A stretch of DNA of 64,000 nt, taken from IMG/VR virus record IMGVR_UViG_3300022890_000014, positions 32,001-96,000 of that record; one strand, 5' to 3'. Of the stretch, positions 42,640-51,695 are shown piece by piece. The DNA is from a virus. Made by a program: the position numbers and the translations under genes. Position 1 is the stretch's first letter, and each line of letters begins with the position of its first letter. The notes under the pieces are model-generated. The model saw only the letters and a list, made by a program, of their open reading frames with translations. It did not search any database and was not told the DNA's origin.

Positions 42640-45600
42640 ATGAACAGAACTACGGTAATTCAGAGGTACTCAGAAGCTATAGCTCCGTACTACAAGCCGC
42701 ATGGTCTTGTTGAGGTATGGGCTACAGGAAGTAAGAAAAAATGGACAAGGATAAGAATAGAGAACATCTCAGCGTGGACTGAAGCTGTAGGGAATACAGA
42801 CGTACATTGTACTCTACAGCAGTTCAAGATTCATCCAACACCATTCGAGGGAAAAGACAAGCATAGTGAGCCATACATAGCTCCGATATTCTTTGAGTTC
42901 GATGCATCAGAAAAGAGAGGGACAACACTAGAAGACTCTCGTAAGGATGCAATGAAGCTATGCACGTTCATTATAAACTCTGTCAATCCAGCCAAAGGAG
43001 TGTTGCGTATCTGGTACTCGGGGAGTCGAGGCTTCCACATTACAATAGATCCTCGTATGTTTGGCATACTACCAGACCCAGAACTACACATGTTCTACAA
43101 GGTTATTGCATTCCATTACGCAGAATTACTTAACTTGAAAACTCTAGACGAACAGGTGTATTCTGTACGAAGAACATTTAGGTTGCCAGATTCTAAGCGA
43201 AGTACTCAATGGGAGAGGGGTAAAGGAGACCTTGTAGACCAGCACAAGGTCGAGATAGAGTTCAATGAACTAGACATGATGTCTGTCGATGAGATACGAG
43301 AATTAGGAAGTGAGCCAAGAGGAGCACTATATAGTGACGAAGAGCTTGCTAGTATAGAGTTCAACCCAGACAGCACAAAATGGCTAAGGCATGCATACCA
43401 AGAGTTTCAGAATGAAAAAAGACTGAAAAACACGTCAAATAAGACTAAGGTTGTCATCAAAGCTGCTGATGACCAATCATTCCCAATATGTATAAAAGCT
43501 ATACTTGAATATGAGTTCGCAACAGACAAGCGCAATAAAGCCTGTTTGTCGTTGCTTTGTTTCCTAAATGATAGTGGTCGGTCGTATGATGACTCATGGG
43601 CTATCATTGAGGAATGGACAAGAGGTATTCCCTGGGACACTAAAAAAGAGGAAGAAAGAGTAGCAAACGCAAGAGCAATCATGCGTCGTGTGTTTACTGA
43701 AGACTCTATATACAACTTCGAGTGTCAATTTATCAGGTCGTGTGCTGGTGTTAACAACTCAAATAACGAGGTGTCAATACCATGTCTATACAACAACTGT
43801 AAGTTTGTCGAGAGTTCTGAGACAAGTTCAAGTGATGCTCCTAGAATTGAGCTTCAAGAATTCATCAGACCTGAGTACAATCGGACTCCGTGTAAGGCTT
43901 ACGCACACCTAATTGGCTTCATGGATAGAGCATTTTCTGTTCCAGCACAAGTAAGACTTAGTTGTCCTCATATTCTCAGTGATGGGAATACTCATCTTGT
44001 TCTTTGCGATACATGTGCAATGCCTAGTACTTCTGAGCAAATAAGCAGCGAAGATACACACGGGCAGGCATTGTCTAGAACAATGGAGATAAACCTCTTA
44101 CGTAATGGACTAGCCTTAATTGACGTGACATCTAAGATGAAGAAAGGGATGATACGTAGCTTGGCTGGTATTCATCCAAAGTGCCAGTCGTGGAGGATGG
44201 AAGAGGTTCAGAGTGCCACTATTAGACAGGTGATGCTTAAACCTCCATCAATTGATGAGTCGTCGTCTTCAGTATGGGATGCAGAAAGCTTTGAGGCTAA
44301 AAAGCAAGTAGGATTCCTAGCTACTAGAGAAGAAGACTCTATCTTGTCAAAAGAGAATACCGAAGTAGAGATTGTTGCTATGCCAATGGCATCACCTAAA
44401 GACCAGAGTATTCATCTTGCTATTTCTGGCATGACTAGTAGTGAGTCTGACTTAGATAAGTTTACAGTCACAGACGAGCTAAAGGAGCAACTATACTCTA
44501 TACATGCTGTAAAAGAAGGAGATACGGTAGAAGGTAAAGTCTTTGATAGAATACAGAAGATTGCATCACATATAGGTATTAGAGGAAGAGATGAGTTGAT
44601 ACTAGCAATGGACTTGGTGTTTCACTCAACTATGGCAGTAAAGCTAAGTGAGAAGGACATCGAAGAAAGAGGCTGGATGCAGTTGCTAGTCGTTGGAGAT
44701 CCAGGGCAAGGCAAGAGTAGTATCAGCAAAAGCCTCATGCGACATTACAATCTTGGACGCTCGATAGAATGTGGAGGCGCATCACGCACAGGCATCGTAT
44801 ATAGTATTGACATTACAAAGTACGGAAAAATGCTTGTTTGGGGTGTACTACCACAAGAGGATAGGCGACTGGTTGTAATAGATGAGTTCCACCAGTTAGA
44901 CGCAGAAGACCTTGAGATGATGACAGGTATGAGATCGTCAGGAATAGTAAAGGTCAATCGTATAGTTAGTGGAACAACACTATGTAGAACCAGAATGATA
45001 TTCCTTGCGAACCCTCCTGGTGATGGCAAGCTAGATGGGTACAGCTTCGGAATCAAGGCTATTAATGCGGTTATGACTAAGCAGCAAGATATACGCAGAC
45101 TTGACCTAGCTTCTATATGTAGGTCTGGTGATGTTAGCTTGGAAGATCTTAATAAGGTCTCTACAGATGGAGACTACGGAGAATATGAACCAAACTCTTG
45201 CAAGAACCTAATCTTATGGGCATGGACAAGGAAGACAGAACATATCAAATGGACTGAGCAGGCTGTTACTACTCTGATGAAGCAGTCTATTGATATAGCT
45301 AGATGGCTTGAGTGCGACATATCACTTGCAGAAGGTAGCGACATGAGATTCAGGCTTGCTAGGATAGCTCAGTCTGTTGCAGCCATGTGCTACTCATCTG
45401 ATTCCGAAGGCGAGAACCTTTGGATAAAACCAGAACATGTTGAGTTCGCAGCAGATGTATTTGTGCAATTGTCTACATCTGTTGGCAAAATGAACCTTCA
45501 TGTATATGCAAAGTCGTGGCAAGCAAGAAACACACTAACCGACAAGCAAAGAGAGGACTTAGGCAGAACACTAACTGGTAATACATGGTTCTTGGTGTTC

Positions 45601-45867
45601 TGTGATCACATGCTAACTCACGACTTCTTTCGCAAGGAAGATGTATCTGTATTGGTCGATATGGACGTTGAAGACTTTAAGGAGCTATGGAAGTTCCTTA
45701 TCCGTTCAAACATGATAGAACAAGCTAAGGGCGGCAGAGGATTCAGAAAGAACCCTAAGTTCACCCTGTGGCTAGGAGAACATATAAAAGGGATGAAGCC
45801 AGAAGAAATATCTAACTCTGTAACTCTTTCTGGAGATCAGTATCTTGGTGATGCTGAGTATGAATGA
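42640..45867 (+). CDS. AEP-type primase fused to MCM-family AAA+ helicase
   Basis: AEP motifs FFEFD, YSGSRGFH, FRLP; Cys-rich linker; MCM-like Walker A VGDPGQGKS, IDEF, ANP sensor, RRLD arginine finger. Confidence 0.85.
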   Translation: MNRTTVIQRYSEAIAPYYKPHGLVEVWATGSKKKWTRIRIENISAWTEAVGNTDVHCTLQQFKIHPTPFEGKDKHSEPYIAPIFFEFDASEKRGTTLEDSRKDAMKLCTFIINSVNPAKGVLRIWYSGSRGFHITIDPRMFGILPDPELHMFYKVIAFHYAELLNLKTLDEQVYSVRRTFRLPDSKRSTQWERGKGDLVDQHKVEIEFNELDMMSVDEIRELGSEPRGALYSDEELASIEFNPDSTKWLRHAYQEFQNEKRLKNTSNKTKVVIKAADDQSFPICIKAILEYEFATDKRNKACLSLLCFLNDSGRSYDDSWAIIEEWTRGIPWDTKKEEERVANARAIMRRVFTEDSIYNFECQFIRSCAGVNNSNNEVSIPCLYNNCKFVESSETSSSDAPRIELQEFIRPEYNRTPCKAYAHLIGFMDRAFSVPAQVRLSCPHILSDGNTHLVLCDTCAMPSTSEQISSEDTHGQALSRTMEINLLRNGLALIDVTSKMKKGMIRSLAGIHPKCQSWRMEEVQSATIRQVMLKPPSIDESSSSVWDAESFEAKKQVGFLATREEDSILSKENTEVEIVAMPMASPKDQSIHLAISGMTSSESDLDKFTVTDELKEQLYSIHAVKEGDTVEGKVFDRIQKIASHIGIRGRDELILAMDLVFHSTMAVKLSEKDIEERGWMQLLVVGDPGQGKSSISKSLMRHYNLGRSIECGGASRTGIVYSIDITKYGKMLVWGVLPQEDRRLVVIDEFHQLDAEDLEMMTGMRSSGIVKVNRIVSGTTLCRTRMIFLANPPGDGKLDGYSFGIKAINAVMTKQQDIRRLDLASICRSGDVSLEDLNKVSTDGDYGEYEPNSCKNLILWAWTRKTEHIKWTEQAVTTLMKQSIDIARWLECDISLAEGSDMRFRLARIAQSVAAMCYSSDSEGENLWIKPEHVEFAADVFVQLSTSVGKMNLHVYAKSWQARNTLTDKQREDLGRTLTGNTWFLVFCDHMLTHDFFRKEDVSVLVDMDVEDFKELWKFLIRSNMIEQAKGGRGFRKNPKFTLWLGEHIKGMKPEEISNSVTLSGDQYLGDAEYE
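43889..43905. repeat. 17-bp palindrome copy (intragenic)
   Basis: CGTGTAAGGCTTACGCA in the primase-helicase (PCKAYA). Confidence 0.85.
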
Positions 45868-45964: not shown

Positions 45965-45974
45965 AATGCGTAAG

Positions 45975-46005
45975 AAGTATCATGTAAGTATCATGTAAGT
46001 ATTAC
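45975..46005. repeat. Tandem 11-mer AAGTATCATGT x2 plus a partial copy
   Basis: Seen directly, between a palindrome half-site (45967) and a full copy (46007). Confidence 0.8.
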
Positions 46006-46006
46006 T

Positions 46007-46023
46007 TACGTAAGGCTTACGCA
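46007..46023. repeat. 17-bp palindrome copy
   Basis: TACGTAAGGCTTACGCA. Confidence 0.9.
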
Positions 46024-46040: not shown

Positions 46041-47270
46041 ATGAGCAAAGAAGTTATTGATAAGAACAAAAAAGAGTTTAGTGAGGCTGTTATGAATAAT
46101 GATAGGCTAAAGATTGCCGAACTGACTAAAGGCGACAAAGAGATTGAAGTCAGCAGCATGTTCGATGATGACGAAGAGATTGAGATTTCTGGAGATCTCG
46201 GTGTTACGAATCCAGATGAATACAGAGAGATGGCTGCGGAGCTAACCAAAGGTACAACCCATAAGAAAGTCAACGATTCAGATTTAATGAAGGATCAGAG
46301 AGTAATCAACCTACTCACAGAAAAGATCCCAGAAGTTGGAGGACTGTACAAAGAGTATCCAGAAGACTTCAGCATGAAGGATGTCATCTCAGAAACAATG
46401 AAGCTTATCTTCTTGACCGCTGGCATGGCTAAAGAGTCCGGTATCTCACTTGGTGCTATCGAAAACGATTCTGAAAGTCTCAGCAGATTCGTTGGCACGA
46501 TCTCTGACGAAATACAAGAACGACTAAACATCTATCGCCCAGCAGGAAAAGATGCTGCCAGAATCCGCATGGGTGAGTGGCTTGTGTCAAACTCTGACAA
46601 TCAAGTTATGTTTGTCAATGCTTTGTCTGGTTTTCCCGATGGAAGCTTGGCTTATATTATAGCTGGAGCAAACGAAGAGTTCGTTACTCTTGAAATCGAT
46701 CCTGATGTTGTTGGCCTGTATTCCTTCTATGGTGAGAATGGATTCAGCAAAAACATTAAACCAGACCAGAAACAACTCAAGCCCGCTATCTTTATTAAGA
46801 GATGGGATGAGATTCTTGAGTACGGATTCTGCCTAACAAAGAGAGTCGATCTTGTTGACGGTATGCATCCAGAAGCTTCTACTCCAGAAGAAAACAAAAG
46901 AGGTGCTGTTAGTTATCCTGAAGTAGCACCAGGAGCAGAAGCAGGTTCTATCGTGTATCCAGAGAGTCTTCTTCCTACAGAGCCTATTCTTAAGAAGAAA
47001 ATGGAGAGTGACTTCAATGACCTCTCTTCAGAAGATAAAAACAAAATTGCAACGCTATCTCTAACGGATGGAAATTCTGCTATTGAGATATGTGTCAGAA
47101 ATAATGTCGATCCAAGCTCGTTTGTCAGAGCCATGTCTCAGAATGGGTACAGCATCGATAAAGAACACGGTGTGTTTGTGACAACTCCTGCTGAAGCACC
47201 TGTTGTCGATGAAACACCAGAAGACAACACAGGCAACGCACTTAGCTCTATGATGAACTTCATGGGATAG
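46041..47270 (+). CDS. Acidic hypothetical protein
   Basis: About 409 aa from ATG after GGAG SD. Confidence 0.7.
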   Translation: MSKEVIDKNKKEFSEAVMNNDRLKIAELTKGDKEIEVSSMFDDDEEIEISGDLGVTNPDEYREMAAELTKGTTHKKVNDSDLMKDQRVINLLTEKIPEVGGLYKEYPEDFSMKDVISETMKLIFLTAGMAKESGISLGAIENDSESLSRFVGTISDEIQERLNIYRPAGKDAARIRMGEWLVSNSDNQVMFVNALSGFPDGSLAYIIAGANEEFVTLEIDPDVVGLYSFYGENGFSKNIKPDQKQLKPAIFIKRWDEILEYGFCLTKRVDLVDGMHPEASTPEENKRGAVSYPEVAPGAEAGSIVYPESLLPTEPILKKKMESDFNDLSSEDKNKIATLSLTDGNSAIEICVRNNVDPSSFVRAMSQNGYSIDKEHGVFVTTPAEAPVVDETPEDNTGNALSSMMNFMG

Positions 47271-48284: not shown

Positions 48285-49703
48285 ATGCTGATGATTATTC
48301 GCAAGGAAGCCCAGAGGGCCAACCACATTAGAATTGGTGTACCTTCTGGGCAAGAGGTTGCTTCTACCAGAGTCAAAGGTAAGAAAGCTGCAATCAAGAA
48401 GCTTCCATTCTTTCAGTTCTGCAACACCGTAAGAAACGACCAGGGGTACTATGACCTTGACCATGAGATGCACGAAAAGATTGGTCCAGAGCCAGAGAGT
48501 TTTGGTCCTGTCTTTCTGACAAGCGACCATATCCATGAGTGTATCGAGTCTGGGTTTAGCTTTTGGAAAGGCCCAGGAGGAAAAGGAAAGCTATTTTGTG
48601 GTCGAGCCCTTAGTGTTTTCGACGAGGGTGTTATTCGCACTGGTAATGCCTCAAGAAGAAGAGGTGAAGACTTCTTTGACTTTGAATGTAATGCAAATGA
48701 ATGCCCTGACTTCAAAAGTGGTTCATGCGGCATCTTCACTAAGTACAAGTTTTTCCATCCAGAAACAATACGGTTTGGCGAGTGTGACATGACTATAAAG
48801 TCATACCGTGGAATGGGAGCAATGATAGGTTTCCTTTCTACCATCATGTCTACCGGACTATTCAAGATTGATGTTGAAAGAGGCATCATACATGGTCTCT
48901 CTAAGATACCAATCATGTTTGAGATGAGAGGAATGACCATTACTAACAATGGATACACCTCTAAGGCTTGGTATCCAACACCAGTTGTCTACAATGATAC
49001 AAAAAAGCCAGCACTACTTCTCGTAAAGAGTATAGCGGAAAGTATTGTAAAGCAGACCCAAAACCTGCTGGGTCCAGTAGTCTCCAATCAAGTAAGAATG
49101 ATTGAGGGAATCAAGTCAAATGAGAACATTGATCTTGAAGACTTCCTAGAGGTTATAGATGAGCCAGATAAAAAAGATAAAAAAACCCTTGACTATCCTC
49201 AAGAATCTGATAAGGTAAGTAAAGAGTTAGCTGATGCAGACAGAGCAATCAAGGAACAGCAGAATATAGAAGCAGCCAACATCAGTGCTCAAAAACTCAG
49301 AGATATGCAGGCCCCACAAGCAGCAGTCGAACAAGTTGTTCCAGAACCAGTGAAAACAGTAGCTCCTATACCAACACCAAGCGAGCCAACACCTGAACCA
49401 CAACAAGAGCAAGAATCAACACAGGAAGGTTTTCATATCTTCTCTGCTAACAATCAAGAGGGGACTATTAATAGATACCTTCTTGATCAATTAGAGAGTA
49501 GATTCATCCTGAAGGCAACATCAAAAGAGCATGGAACAATATCTGTTCTTTCTTGGGGTCCAAATCGCACAGAAATTGACATAGCCCTCTCTTCAAAGGA
49601 ACTTGCAGACAGGTTCGAGAAGTCAGGATGGAAGATTCCGAAGCTATTCTTTATGGCTGATGGCAGAGGACTTGACGTAGCATACGAGAAGTTGAGCAAA
49701 TGA
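48285..49703 (+). CDS. Gp3-like recombination (RDF/ssDNA-annealing-like) protein
   Basis: IRIG...KLPFF...GPEP...LFC...C...C.....C pattern recalled for the Gp3-like family; replication/recombination context. Confidence 0.5.
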   Translation: MLMIIRKEAQRANHIRIGVPSGQEVASTRVKGKKAAIKKLPFFQFCNTVRNDQGYYDLDHEMHEKIGPEPESFGPVFLTSDHIHECIESGFSFWKGPGGKGKLFCGRALSVFDEGVIRTGNASRRRGEDFFDFECNANECPDFKSGSCGIFTKYKFFHPETIRFGECDMTIKSYRGMGAMIGFLSTIMSTGLFKIDVERGIIHGLSKIPIMFEMRGMTITNNGYTSKAWYPTPVVYNDTKKPALLLVKSIAESIVKQTQNLLGPVVSNQVRMIEGIKSNENIDLEDFLEVIDEPDKKDKKTLDYPQESDKVSKELADADRAIKEQQNIEAANISAQKLRDMQAPQAAVEQVVPEPVKTVAPIPTPSEPTPEPQQEQESTQEGFHIFSANNQEGTINRYLLDQLESRFILKATSKEHGTISVLSWGPNRTEIDIALSSKELADRFEKSGWKIPKLFFMADGRGLDVAYEKLSK

Positions 49704-49954
49704 CAAGAACAGGAAAATTGGTACAAGATACTCGCAAGAAAAGAATTTTGAAAGTAGAGTGTGCCAATTCGACTGTTATCATTATTGGCGCTAATGATAA
49801 CATCGCAAACATCCTAGAAGGTGGAGCCTTGGTTGACGGTAAAGCGCCTATGCAATTGCGTTGCATACATGAAATAGATTGGGTTGAAGGAGAAATCAAC
49901 CTAATCAGTAAGAAGAAACTGTTTCCTCCAGTTCTAAACGAAGAGGTTGCGTAA
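49700..49954 (+). CDS. Small hypothetical protein
   Basis: ATGA overlap; stop codon inside a palindrome copy. Confidence 0.55.
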   Translation: MTRTGKLVQDTRKKRILKVECANSTVIIIGANDNIANILEGGALVDGKAPMQLRCIHEIDWVEGEINLISKKKLFPPVLNEEVA

Positions 49955-49964
49955 GCCTTACGCA
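49948..49964. repeat. 17-bp palindrome copy (stop codon; directly upstream of the ParB-like gene)
   Basis: Perfect. Confidence 0.95.
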
Positions 49965-49985
49965 CCAATAACGGAGAAGTCTAGA

Positions 49986-51620
49986 ATGACAATCGCTAAG
50001 AAAATCCTAACCACATGCACCCCCGAACAATTGATTATCGTCAGCAACATTAAGTCCGGTGAACTCAAAAACGTCGAGAGCCTTGGCCGCACGATGCTGC
50101 CACCCACGGGACAGAAGGTTCCACTGCTTGTTTTCCAGGTTGCTGATGATCTCAAAGTCATCTATGCTGCTCTTAAAGAAAGAGGGGTTGAACTAGAAGA
50201 TCTCTTGGTAGAACTCAAAGATCTCGATAAAGAGACCGAGAAGACCGACTACGAAGAGTTAGAACGTATGATTGAGGGTGTCCGAGCTAATATAAAATTG
50301 ATGGAACAAGACCTCGAAATCCTTGAAGAAGTGGAAGACCCCGAAAATACCTACCGTATTGTTGATGGTCATCGCCGCTTCACCGCTGGTGTCTTCATTG
50401 GTCTCTCAAGCTTCGATATTATCATCCATCCCGCAGAAGCCGACCCATCAAAGGTCATCACTGACCAGATGATTTTGGGTATGCAACAAGAAACCCTGTC
50501 AAAACTCGACGAAGCCCGTACCTACCGCAACCTTCGCAGCTTAGGCAAAACACAAGACGAAATCATCAAAGATACTGGTAATGCCGTTAAGCGTTCCACT
50601 ATCCTTCAGCGTGGCAAAATCCTCGACGTTTATGAAAGAGTTGAGCAGTTCCCACAAGCTAACGAAGAAGCTAGCGTCTTCCTCGATGCAATCGATAACG
50701 ATTCTTTCAAAGTCCAGATTCTCACCAAAATGGGTCAGTATCTCGAAGAAGATGATGTCGCCGATTCTGGCTGGTTGTGGATGATTGAACTCGCTAACAC
50801 AGGCGTTTCCGGTGAAAACTTCGCCACACAATGCAACGATAAATTCGGTGCAAAAGCTGGCCCGACCTCAACTGCAAAGAGCACTGAAGAAGGTGGAATC
50901 AAGACCGCTGGTGGTGTTCGTAAACGCAATGCTTCTGAAATCGAAAAGACATGCAAGTTCTGGCAAAACCTCGCAACCGCCGGACTCGAAAACAGAGCCG
51001 AAAAAGGAGATGCCTGTAATATCTCCAAGATCGATCAGGCTCGCGTCGAGTACGCTGCTTTGCAAGCAGAATGCGATCTCGGTGGAGAAGAGCCTCCAGT
51101 ACCCGAAAGCTTCAAGAAAGCTGCTGAGTACATGAAGAAGCAAGAAAAAGCTGCTGAAGTCAAAGACAAGGAAGCTAAGGCCGCTCTTAAGACCGAAGCA
51201 TCGAAAGAAAAGAAAGAAGCCGCCTCTGCTGAGAAAGAGAAGAAAAAACTCATTATCGATGAGTTCAAGAATCTCTACAAGCTTGATGTCAAAGCTGTCG
51301 AAACCACAATCAAGGCAAACAACGCCAAGATTACCAAGCTCAACGAAAAGATCACAACAGAGAAAGATGAAACCAAACTCAAGAGAGCAACTGGGGAACT
51401 CGAAAAAGCAGTGAATATGCAACTTGTCTTAGACAAGAAGCTTGCTAGCGCTAAAGAGTCTCACGAAGCGTCTAAACCCGAATGGCTGAAAGAAGACGAA
51501 GCCAAGAAGGAAAAAGCCAGAATCGAACGTGAAGCCAAGAAAGCTGACGAAGCTCTCGAAGCTGCCTCTAAGCCAGTCGTCGTCGAAGCTCCAGAAGCTC
51601 CAGAAGCTCCAGTCGAATAA
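49986..51620 (+). CDS. parB: ParB/Noc-family (ParB/Srx CTPase + HTH) protein with coiled-coil insert and K/E-rich tail
   Basis: 'VESLGRTM...GQKVPLLV', 'YRIVDGHRRFTA', 'QQETLSKLDEARTYRNLRSLGKTQDEI...G...RSTI' HTH; start moved to MTIAKK after ACGGAG SD. Confidence 0.8.
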   Translation: MTIAKKILTTCTPEQLIIVSNIKSGELKNVESLGRTMLPPTGQKVPLLVFQVADDLKVIYAALKERGVELEDLLVELKDLDKETEKTDYEELERMIEGVRANIKLMEQDLEILEEVEDPENTYRIVDGHRRFTAGVFIGLSSFDIIIHPAEADPSKVITDQMILGMQQETLSKLDEARTYRNLRSLGKTQDEIIKDTGNAVKRSTILQRGKILDVYERVEQFPQANEEASVFLDAIDNDSFKVQILTKMGQYLEEDDVADSGWLWMIELANTGVSGENFATQCNDKFGAKAGPTSTAKSTEEGGIKTAGGVRKRNASEIEKTCKFWQNLATAGLENRAEKGDACNISKIDQARVEYAALQAECDLGGEEPPVPESFKKAAEYMKKQEKAAEVKDKEAKAALKTEASKEKKEAASAEKEKKKLIIDEFKNLYKLDVKAVETTIKANNAKITKLNEKITTEKDETKLKRATGELEKAVNMQLVLDKKLASAKESHEASKPEWLKEDEAKKEKARIEREAKKADEALEAASKPVVVEAPEAPEAPVE

Positions 51621-51666
51621 GTTTGTACTAGCCAATGGCTAGTTGGTTCTAGAAACAGCAAAGAAG

Positions 51667-51695
51667 AGGGCGGTCCACATGGTCGCCCTTTTTTT
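51667..51695 (+). terminator. Rho-independent terminator after the ParB-like gene
   Basis: AGGGCG...CGCCCT stem plus T-tract. Confidence 0.7.

Follow-up and report, generated by a model that had tools for sequence, protein, structure and literature searches.

The virus record IMGVR_UViG_3300022890_000014 (150,744 bp) comes from salt-lake metagenomes and represents a large uncultured phage. Our analysis centered on one gene within bases 32001-96000 of this record, a stretch of 64,000 nucleotides referred to here as the window, and all coordinates are those of the window unless marked "genome". The gene (49986-51620, plus strand) encodes a 544 aa ParB-like protein (P0001) whose residues 5-289 form a genuine ParB fold with a helix-turn-helix (HTH) domain and belong to the ParB/Spo0J/Noc/KorB class. 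The genome also carries 82 copies of a 17-bp palindrome, arranged as an even lattice. The reading we favor, at about even chances, is that a dimer of this ParB/KorB-like protein docks on the lattice and acts genome-wide.

Assignment to the ParB class required profile and fold searches. Alignments from single-sequence hidden Markov models covered residues ~115-222 only, and the match to Pfam ParB_N (PF02195, E 0.063) was under the cut-off because an insert splits the domain. No Pfam KorB match was obtained, while phrog_6218, a "ParB-like partition protein", matched at E 5.6e-11. An exhaustive HMMER search with query residues 1-330 against 1.84 billion cluster representatives returned 240 proteins at E<=1e-3, and near-full-query matches were limited to eight others, seven at E 7e-50 to 1e-20 and P0009 at 3.5e-10. 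The resulting nine-cluster family (P0001-P0009) spans 493-628 aa, with the eight others 24-29% identical in the alignment. Its profile (A1) matched T. thermophilus Spo0J (1vz0, 4.9e-13), B. subtilis ParB (6sdk, 2.6e-11) and Noc (7.7e-9), as well as the ParBs of M. xanthus and C. crescentus and, weakly, KorB (0.014).

We built an AlphaFold 2 (AF2) model from the nine-sequence alignment, with a mean predicted local distance difference test score (pLDDT) of 82. Among Foldseek matches in the PDB at E<=1e-3, the best 17 of 24 were all ParB, Noc, Spo0J or KorB. Superposition with VIA-align placed model residues 6-165 on C. crescentus ParB (7bm8_A; Z 13.4, root mean square deviation (rmsd) 1.9 Å over 93 residues) and residues 5-289 on KorB (8qa9_B; Z 12.2, rmsd 3.6 Å over 194 residues), covering both flanks of the insert. 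The HTH DNA-binding domain (aa 173-292; 50502-50861) aligned with the Spo0J/Noc HTH profile, and model residues 167-288 matched the Spo0J-parS structure 4umk_A (Z 10.1, rmsd 2.3 Å), 6y93_A (Z 9.1) and 6s6h_A (Z 8.4). Neighbors in BFVD and the ESM Atlas were phage proteins with ParB_N plus HTH_ParB. The ParB fold and HTH domain that a sequence-only reading of the window had proposed were thus recovered, as was its suggestion that the fold is split by an acidic helical insert.

This insert occupies residues 52-121 (50139-50348), between the strand after the C-motif loop (GQKVP-LLVF, to residue 51) and the box II strand (YRIVDGHRR, from residue 122). It is modeled as an acidic antiparallel coiled-coil hairpin of 65-70 aa with helices at 52-79 and 86-114 (pLDDT ~90), best-register hydrophobic a/d occupancies of 0.88 and 1.0, and a net charge of -11. 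All nine family members carry it, in shorter form in P0005 and P0009. Since the box II strand begins at ~45-60 in ordinary homologues, as compared with 122 here, the insert is specific to the nine-member family. The text of a survey of ParB-CTPase-fold proteins mentions neither insertions in the fold nor coiled coils, and no genome-wide site lattice (PMC12704722). A coiled-coil hairpin of 65-70 residues can thus be accommodated by the ParB nucleotide-binding fold between its C-motif strand and box II, and the insert offers a handle for studying partner recruitment to ParB clamps.

On either side of the insert the N-domain retains the elements of a nucleotide pocket in part. The first half (aa 1-51; 49986-50138) consists of strands, a helix at 30-36 and the loop GQKVP, which together stand where box I and the C motif are expected; this region is covered by the fold alignment, which begins at model residue 5-8, and by no sequence-profile alignment. 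Its family-conserved motifs are SNV(R/K)xGELxN and GQKxPL. In the second half (aa 122-172; 50349-50501), box II reads DGHRRFTA at aa 127-134 (50364-50387) and aligns to GERRYRA of Spo0J, with D127, G128, H129, R130, R131 and A134 invariant in all nine proteins. The GxxR(xxA) P motif is therefore retained, and because of this, binding of a nucleoside triphosphate (NTP) by the ParB-like protein is plausible. The catalytic Glu of GERR is replaced by the family-invariant His129. Box III is degenerate: vENLQRE of Spo0J aligns to ILGMQQE, in which E-N becomes L-G and Arg becomes Gln, with loss of the E, N and R. Box III is often missing in orphan ParBs, and both sequence and AlphaFold 3 fail to predict nucleotide specificity (PMC12704722, Kaljevic et al.).

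A perfect palindrome, TGCGTAAGCCTTACGCA, lies at 49948-49964 (unstranded), 21 nt before the ATG of the ParB-like gene, as the sequence-only reading had noted. Written as TGCGTAAG-C-CTTACGCA, it is one member of a larger set. We found 82 genome copies of TGCGTAAG-S-CTTACGCA at <=2 mismatches (55 perfect, 21 with one mismatch and 6 with two), where 0.01 were expected in the window. Conservation ends exactly at the edges of the 17-mer, in an 8-1-8 arrangement with random flanks. The center is G or C and showed no bias relative to the coding strand (41 C vs 31 G), a comparison made to look for RNA-level function. These properties fit a symmetric dimer on double-stranded DNA. Approximately 59 copies are intergenic, typically 9-20 nt ahead of a start codon and with divergent and convergent regions included, while ~23 lie within genes; six of the nine genes that exceed 3 kb hold such copies. 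Spacing averages 1833 bp with a coefficient of variation of 0.44 and a maximum gap of 3896 bp. That coefficient was reached in none of 10,000 random placements (null mean 0.98) and in none of 20,000 placements constrained to gene junctions (null mean 1.0). A scan of IMG/VR for GCGTAAGSCTTACGC returned 44 contigs with one site each, and hence no further lattice of this exact sequence. Our literature search found no description of the palindrome sequence, or of a phage ParB with a genome-wide lattice or such an insert.

About one third of the genes have a palindrome just upstream, and site positions are generally syntenic among relatives. Five of six lattice-bearing relatives have a site at the position before the ParB gene, and the position before the PD-(D/E)XK nuclease gene is likewise occupied. 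The proposal that the ParB-like gene is autoregulated through its upstream site gained no specific support, given how many genes have such a site and given that one relative (L006) lacks a site before its ParB gene.

A promoter-like motif, (T)GGTATAAG-N3-TA, was observed in 24 genome copies (5.8 expected), mostly intergenic, and 14 of the 24 were <=60 bp from a palindrome, on either side. Its positions include 38663, 41615, 42572, 48226, 52608 and 60138, and related GGGTATAAG/GGGATATAAG motifs occur in relatives. Directly upstream of one palindrome copy, before the gene at 46041, we also observed two 11-bp-phased repeats (ATCATGTAAGT) with a GTAAG half-site (45966-46023).

The codon usage of the ParB-like gene sets it apart from most of the genome. 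Its third-position C/(C+T) was 0.568 against a genome mean of 0.38 (standard deviation 0.083), ranking fifth of 136 genes, and its codon usage differed from the rest of the genome with a chi-square p of 9e-49. The differences between gene and genome were large for CTC (0.47 vs 0.11), ATC (0.64 vs 0.23) and ACC (0.48 vs 0.14). The shift is one of C over T and GAA over GAG, with ATA nearly missing, and there is no general increase in third-position GC content. Among genes of at least 300 codons, the ParB-like gene and the major head gene (phrog_2522) were the most deviant, with a chi-square/n of 0.62 each and all others at <=0.31. A capsid-like codon score placed the ParB-like gene third of 128 (z 3.5), right behind two reference genes and thus first outside the capsid reference set. 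Very high expression is the simplest reading of this codon usage, and the protein probably reaches levels similar to those of the major capsid protein. The bias toward C-ending codons claimed earlier was in this way confirmed by computation, and the abundance claimed with it is upheld by inference. The major head gene and several adjacent structural genes (genome 114612-116147 and 118484-120090) share the C-ending, GAA-preferring signature.

Relatives of the locus carry palindromes of their own. The sequence CGTAAG-S-CTTACG occurs in ~10 copies in 20.8 kb of L006 (P0002), GCATAAG-S-CTTATGC in 5 copies in 7.8 kb of L007 (P0005), and TGTAAG-S-CTTACA in 2 copies in 5.6 kb of L064 (P0009). A second type is represented by GCATGAG-S-CTCATGC, with 13 copies in 19.7 kb of L063 (P0008), and GCATGCG-S-CGCATGC, with 2 copies in 3.3 kb of L008 (P0006). 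The two palindrome types track two well-supported clades of the ParB tree. In the recognition helix, the CATG(A/C)G clade has an Asp and an extra Arg (SRD.IRQR); at these places the TAAG clade carries Ser/Gly and a residue that is not basic. This co-variation suggests a phage-encoded reader that co-evolves with its sites and is compatible with the HTH of the ParB-like protein being that reader, with phylogeny as a confounder. As intergenic positions are conserved (e.g. before the PD-(D/E)XK gene), all sites of a genome appear to evolve in concert with the reader. The protein and palindrome variants in six relatives provide a natural specificity-swap series.

Seven related contigs share a common gene order: primase-MCM, several genes, a Gp3-like gene (PF18897), a 75-99 aa open reading frame (ORF), the ParB-like gene, thymidylate kinase (Tmk) and the PD-(D/E)XK nuclease. 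The ParB-like gene is a conserved core gene of a replication and nucleotide-metabolism module in a large uncultured phage lineage, which carries its own primase-MCM, RNA polymerase and sigma factors. A Pfam scan of the 150 other genome proteins matched 32 families, and among the 25 shown there was no HTH or ribbon-helix-helix (RHH) family; going by these 25, the ParB-like protein was the sole Pfam-recognizable sequence-specific HTH protein found besides sigma factors. A "second degenerate ParB-like" gene considered at genome 96760-97065 was unsupported by the PF02195 genome scan and by Pfam, and an RHH candidate adjoining it reached only E 0.03.

From these observations we consider the ParB-like protein the best candidate reader of the 17-mer, and a plausible one. 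A dimer would dock through its two HTH domains on the 17-bp palindrome, present at 82 sites ~1.8 kb apart, and from the docked sites would act over the whole phage chromosome. If the GxxR pocket still binds NTP, clamp closure could follow, with sliding over the 1-2 kb between sites as for KorB and BisD. The outcome we infer would be genome-wide regulation or organization of phage DNA, and not partition. CTP switches of the ParB type serve partition (ParB), nucleoid occlusion (Noc) and the regulation of plasmids and integrative and conjugative elements (ICEs; KorB, VirB, BisD). If our reading holds, the family would extend this list by a lytic-type phage case marked by apparent capsid-level abundance, the lack of ParA, and likely sites that tile the genome at clamp-sliding spacing.

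A number of points weigh against this reading. The replacement of Glu by His in box II and of E-N by L-G in box III may mean that CTP (cytidine triphosphate) hydrolysis, and perhaps clamp closure, has been lost. No recognizable ParB C-terminal dimerization domain was observed, nor any family match for the C-terminal 250 aa, and the protein is acidic (net charge -19), which is unusual for a DNA-coating protein. The co-variation comprises two clades and six protein-site pairs and is confounded by phylogeny, as any phage-encoded factor would track the tree likewise. Relatives were found through the ParB gene, such that a lattice without ParB could not appear. With the majority of the genome's proteins unassigned to any family, the palindrome may have another reader. 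Finally, L061/L062 (P0007) carry an intact ParB-like gene, yet 21.5 kb of sequence contain no repeated motif, so a lattice is not strictly required by the protein. These loci are sister to the lattice-rich L063, and the tail of P0007 is shortened (493 aa). Both come from a crustacean metagenome (L061:1-21482), and the block carries HNH and IS605 OrfB/TnpB insertions.

The same observations lend themselves to a competing explanation, possible though somewhat doubtful in our estimate, under which the protein has a local job in the replication/recombination module (at the origin, at genome ends, or with the Gp3-like or PD-(D/E)XK proteins) and a few sites of its own. The lattice would then be read by another factor: an unannotated protein, the weak RHH candidate, a sigma factor, or primase-MCM using the palindromes as spaced priming signals. 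The strictly conserved placement of the gene among those for replication, recombination and nucleotide metabolism is in keeping with such a job, as are the lattice-free gene of L061, a spacing of ~1.8 kb that would be near the size of an Okazaki fragment, and the many unannotated proteins. However, a perfect dyad with an orientation-free center is what an HTH dimer reads, and no other recognizable sequence-specific double-stranded-DNA-binding family was present among the 25 of 32 families. Capsid-level codon bias is also hard to square with a protein that serves few sites.

A more far-reaching version of genome-wide docking, which we regard as unlikely, can also be put forward. Here an NTP-gated clamp made at capsid level would load itself at ~82 palindromes, leaving every base within ~2 kb of a site, and would form a phage-specific ParB chromatin or condensate that marks and organizes the viral DNA, with the insert docking RNA polymerase, sigma factors or primase-MCM. 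If true, the ParB switch would have gained a novel role in a lytic-type phage, together with a novel insertion within the CTPase fold.

The palindromes could alternatively be RNA hairpins involved in processing, stability or termination and not DNA docking sites, which would make the link to ParB coincidental. We consider this improbable. Most copies sit in intergenic 5' regions at 9-20 nt from the start codon that follows, which would suit such a function; the site folds into a 7-bp hairpin (~-11 kcal/mol), and one copy followed by a T-run scores as terminator-like. Yet a hairpin does not call for near-identical sequence at 82 sites, and the copies in frame inside long genes, the even spacing, the sites in divergent and convergent intergenic regions and the existence of separate canonical terminators all speak against it.

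A slightly slimmer chance still attaches to the ParB fold acting as an enzyme or enzyme activator, i.e. as a nuclease, a kinase, or an activator of a DNA-modifying enzyme as in phage 5mYOX-ParB pairs. The DGH(R/H)R-type motif resembles those of ParB-nuclease and Srx-like relatives, and sulfiredoxin and a serine kinase were among the fold matches at Z 8-10 (sulfiredoxin 6ky4, Z 10.4). The neighbors are nucleotide-metabolism genes, and ParB-dependent phage thymine dioxygenases exist (PMC13229309). No Tet/JBP dioxygenase (PF12851) was matched in the genome, however, and 5mYOX-associated ParB activators have no DNA-binding domain (PMC13229309), whereas the protein described here has a complete ParB-type HTH domain. 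The best matches were DNA-binding ParB, Noc and KorB.

The ParB-like protein appears to be an orphan. The sequence-only reading had reported no ParA in the window, and we extended this to the whole 150.7-kb record, in which PF13614 and PF01656 had no match (search controls were positive in 14 of 14 genomes). The ParA-binding motif [LFI]G[KR]G[LFI] was present in none of P0001-P0009, and no parA was observed beside the gene in the loci of relatives. The TIGR00180 match (E 2.2e-8) scored 34.1 bits and missed the partition-family cut-off of 58.45. Because of the missing ParA, the missing ParA motif and this score, the protein falls outside the partition ParB family. It most likely works like KorB or BisD, which it resembles in fold, in the kind of site and as a putative regulator or organizer on a mobile element. 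That it is nonetheless the partition ParB of a plasmid-like prophage, with ParA and parS in an unsampled part of the genome, is highly improbable: the record is ~82% complete by CheckV and P1-type and N15-type phages use ParB (PMC12704722), but the evidence just given stands against it, as do the position of the gene in a lytic-type replication module and a second assembly of nearly equal length (150,897 bp, the longest of five contigs with the identical protein sequence).

The C-terminal half of the protein begins with a flexible Gly/Thr/Lys-rich linker (aa 293-315; 50862-50930), disordered over 293-312 (pLDDT <50). A helical hairpin (aa 316-364) and a conserved LGG..P..P hinge with an invariant P373 follow (50931-51104), and then a charged helical tail (aa 374-528; 51105-51569) with helices at 374-458, 462-495 and 499-528, in which two helices fold back onto a helix of 85 residues. 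Residues 374-528 are 58% K/E/A and 19% hydrophobic, and residues 421-497 matched generic helical hairpins such as CHMP4B (Z 9.8). The tail had been described as K/E/A heptads; the long charged K/E/A helices are present, but clear heptads are not (a/d occupancy 0.22-0.44). More than a classical heptad coiled coil, the tail resembles a charged spacer that is partly a single helix and has one short amphipathic stretch. Bridging of DNA through coiled coils, also proposed earlier, is unsupported given the weak heptads and a tail modeled as a folded-back hairpin.

The longest frame at the locus (49947-51620) begins with a TTG that falls within the palindrome. The true start is likely the ATG at 49986, which is preceded by a Shine-Dalgarno core GGAG (49973-49976, plus strand) inside AACGGAGA, a spacer found in identical form after many palindrome copies. 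The gene called earlier from 49948 is hence real, but that position is the first base of the palindrome and not of the coding sequence. An intrinsic terminator follows the gene at 51668-51695 (plus strand), as predicted, with a GC stem at 51668-51688, a run of seven T and an A-tract upstream (RNAfold -22.7 kcal/mol, z -3.8). In L006 and L061, comparable hairpins with a T-run were observed 3' of the homologous gene.

Directly upstream of the ParB-like gene is a small ORF of 84 aa (49700-49954, plus strand), a constant neighbor in all relatives. Counterparts of 75-99 aa precede the gene in L006, L007, L008, L061, L063 and L064, with 20-31% identity, and frequently overlap its start. Pfam gave no match to the 84 aa product, and its AF2 model is a low-confidence beta-beta-alpha-beta arrangement (pLDDT 63). 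This product may be a partner of the ParB-like protein.

No match among cultured phages was found for the gene by megablast or tblastn. A word-indexed homologue search returned only the query with the protein, and only already-known members with the Gp3-like profile. IMG/VR scans with the protein and with the Gp3-like alignment, and a metagenome scan with the latter, yielded no relatives. The closest cultured capsid relatives were Salmonella phage Arash and Vibrio phages D69, D181 and D148 (27% identity); in Arash and D69, distant phages found through the capsid, neither a ParB-like protein nor a lattice was observed, which accords with the favored reading.

Elsewhere in the window, 42640-45867 encodes a PriL-like primase and MCM fusion that shares 26% identity over 97% of its length with the primase-MCM of Bacillus phages vB_BboS-125 and phBC6A51. 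The Pfam census of 150 proteins included a T7 gp5.9-like RecBCD inhibitor, Kyano_Gp96, a deoxynucleoside kinase, a thymidine kinase, two thymidylate kinases, an SNF2 helicase, NUDIX and pentapeptide-repeat proteins. A terminal overlap proving genome completeness was sought, and only an identical 34-bp element near both record ends was found (genome 341-374 and 150563-150596), each copy followed ~10-15 bp later by a GGTATAAG motif. This element may be relevant to genome ends or terminal redundancy.

In its proposed role, the ParB-like protein recalls phi29 p6 and SPO1 TF1, abundant histone-like DNA-binding phage proteins that cover the viral genome and affect replication and transcription. These have unrelated folds and are not known to have a discrete lattice of high-affinity palindromes or an NTP-binding domain. 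The best sequence and fold matches of the ParB-like protein are chromosomal ParB/Spo0J and Noc (1vz0, 6sdk, 7bm8, 6t1f, 7nfu, 7ol9), with which it has GxxR, the HTH and the palindromic type of target in common. Unlike these, it has no ParA-binding peptide, parA, ENxxR box III, GERR Glu or recognized C-terminal dimerization domain, and it adds the 65-70 aa insert and a 230-aa helical C-terminal region; the amphipathic N-terminal membrane helix of Noc is also absent. Orphan ParB-CTPase-fold proteins of phages and mobile elements are similar in being orphan, in their divergent box III and in their lineage-specific additions (PMC12704722).

BisD of ICEclc, an orphan too, is a ParB-like clamp to which an activator domain has been added, and it acts over ~50 kb on the genes of its own element (PMC12409273). 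The phage protein shares with it the orphan state on a mobile element, an additional domain not found in ParB and a GxxR pocket (the NTP pocket of BisD is GxxR-dependent). BisD loads at two bisS sites and activates together with BisC, a partner with no known counterpart in the phage, whereas the added modules of the phage protein differ and sit elsewhere, one of them inside the N-domain. By comparison with the extra domain of BisD, the insert and charged tail would most likely be lineage-specific interaction or spacer modules.

KorB of plasmid RK2 binds TTTAGC-G-GCTAAA at many places on the plasmid and slides as a CTP clamp for up to 1.5 kb (PMC11790492), and it is locked at promoters by KorA or TrbA (PMC11790492, PMC13584720, PMC13768133). 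No KorA- or TrbA-like partner was identified in the phage. For KorB there is a ParA partner (IncC), with 12 sites over 60 kb; the phage has no ParA and 82 even sites in 151 kb. KorB also lacks the insert and charged tail, the phage protein lacks the conserved catalytic Glu and box III, and the sequence link between the two is weak (E 0.014). The N-domain and HTH nevertheless have the same fold (8qa8, 8qa9; Z 12.2 over 194 residues), and both systems have many odd-centered palindromes with a G/C center over the replicon, some at promoters and some distant. The 6-1-6 geometry with a central S is also that of the KorB operator, and the spacing of the phage sites fits the KorB sliding range of ~1.5 kb.

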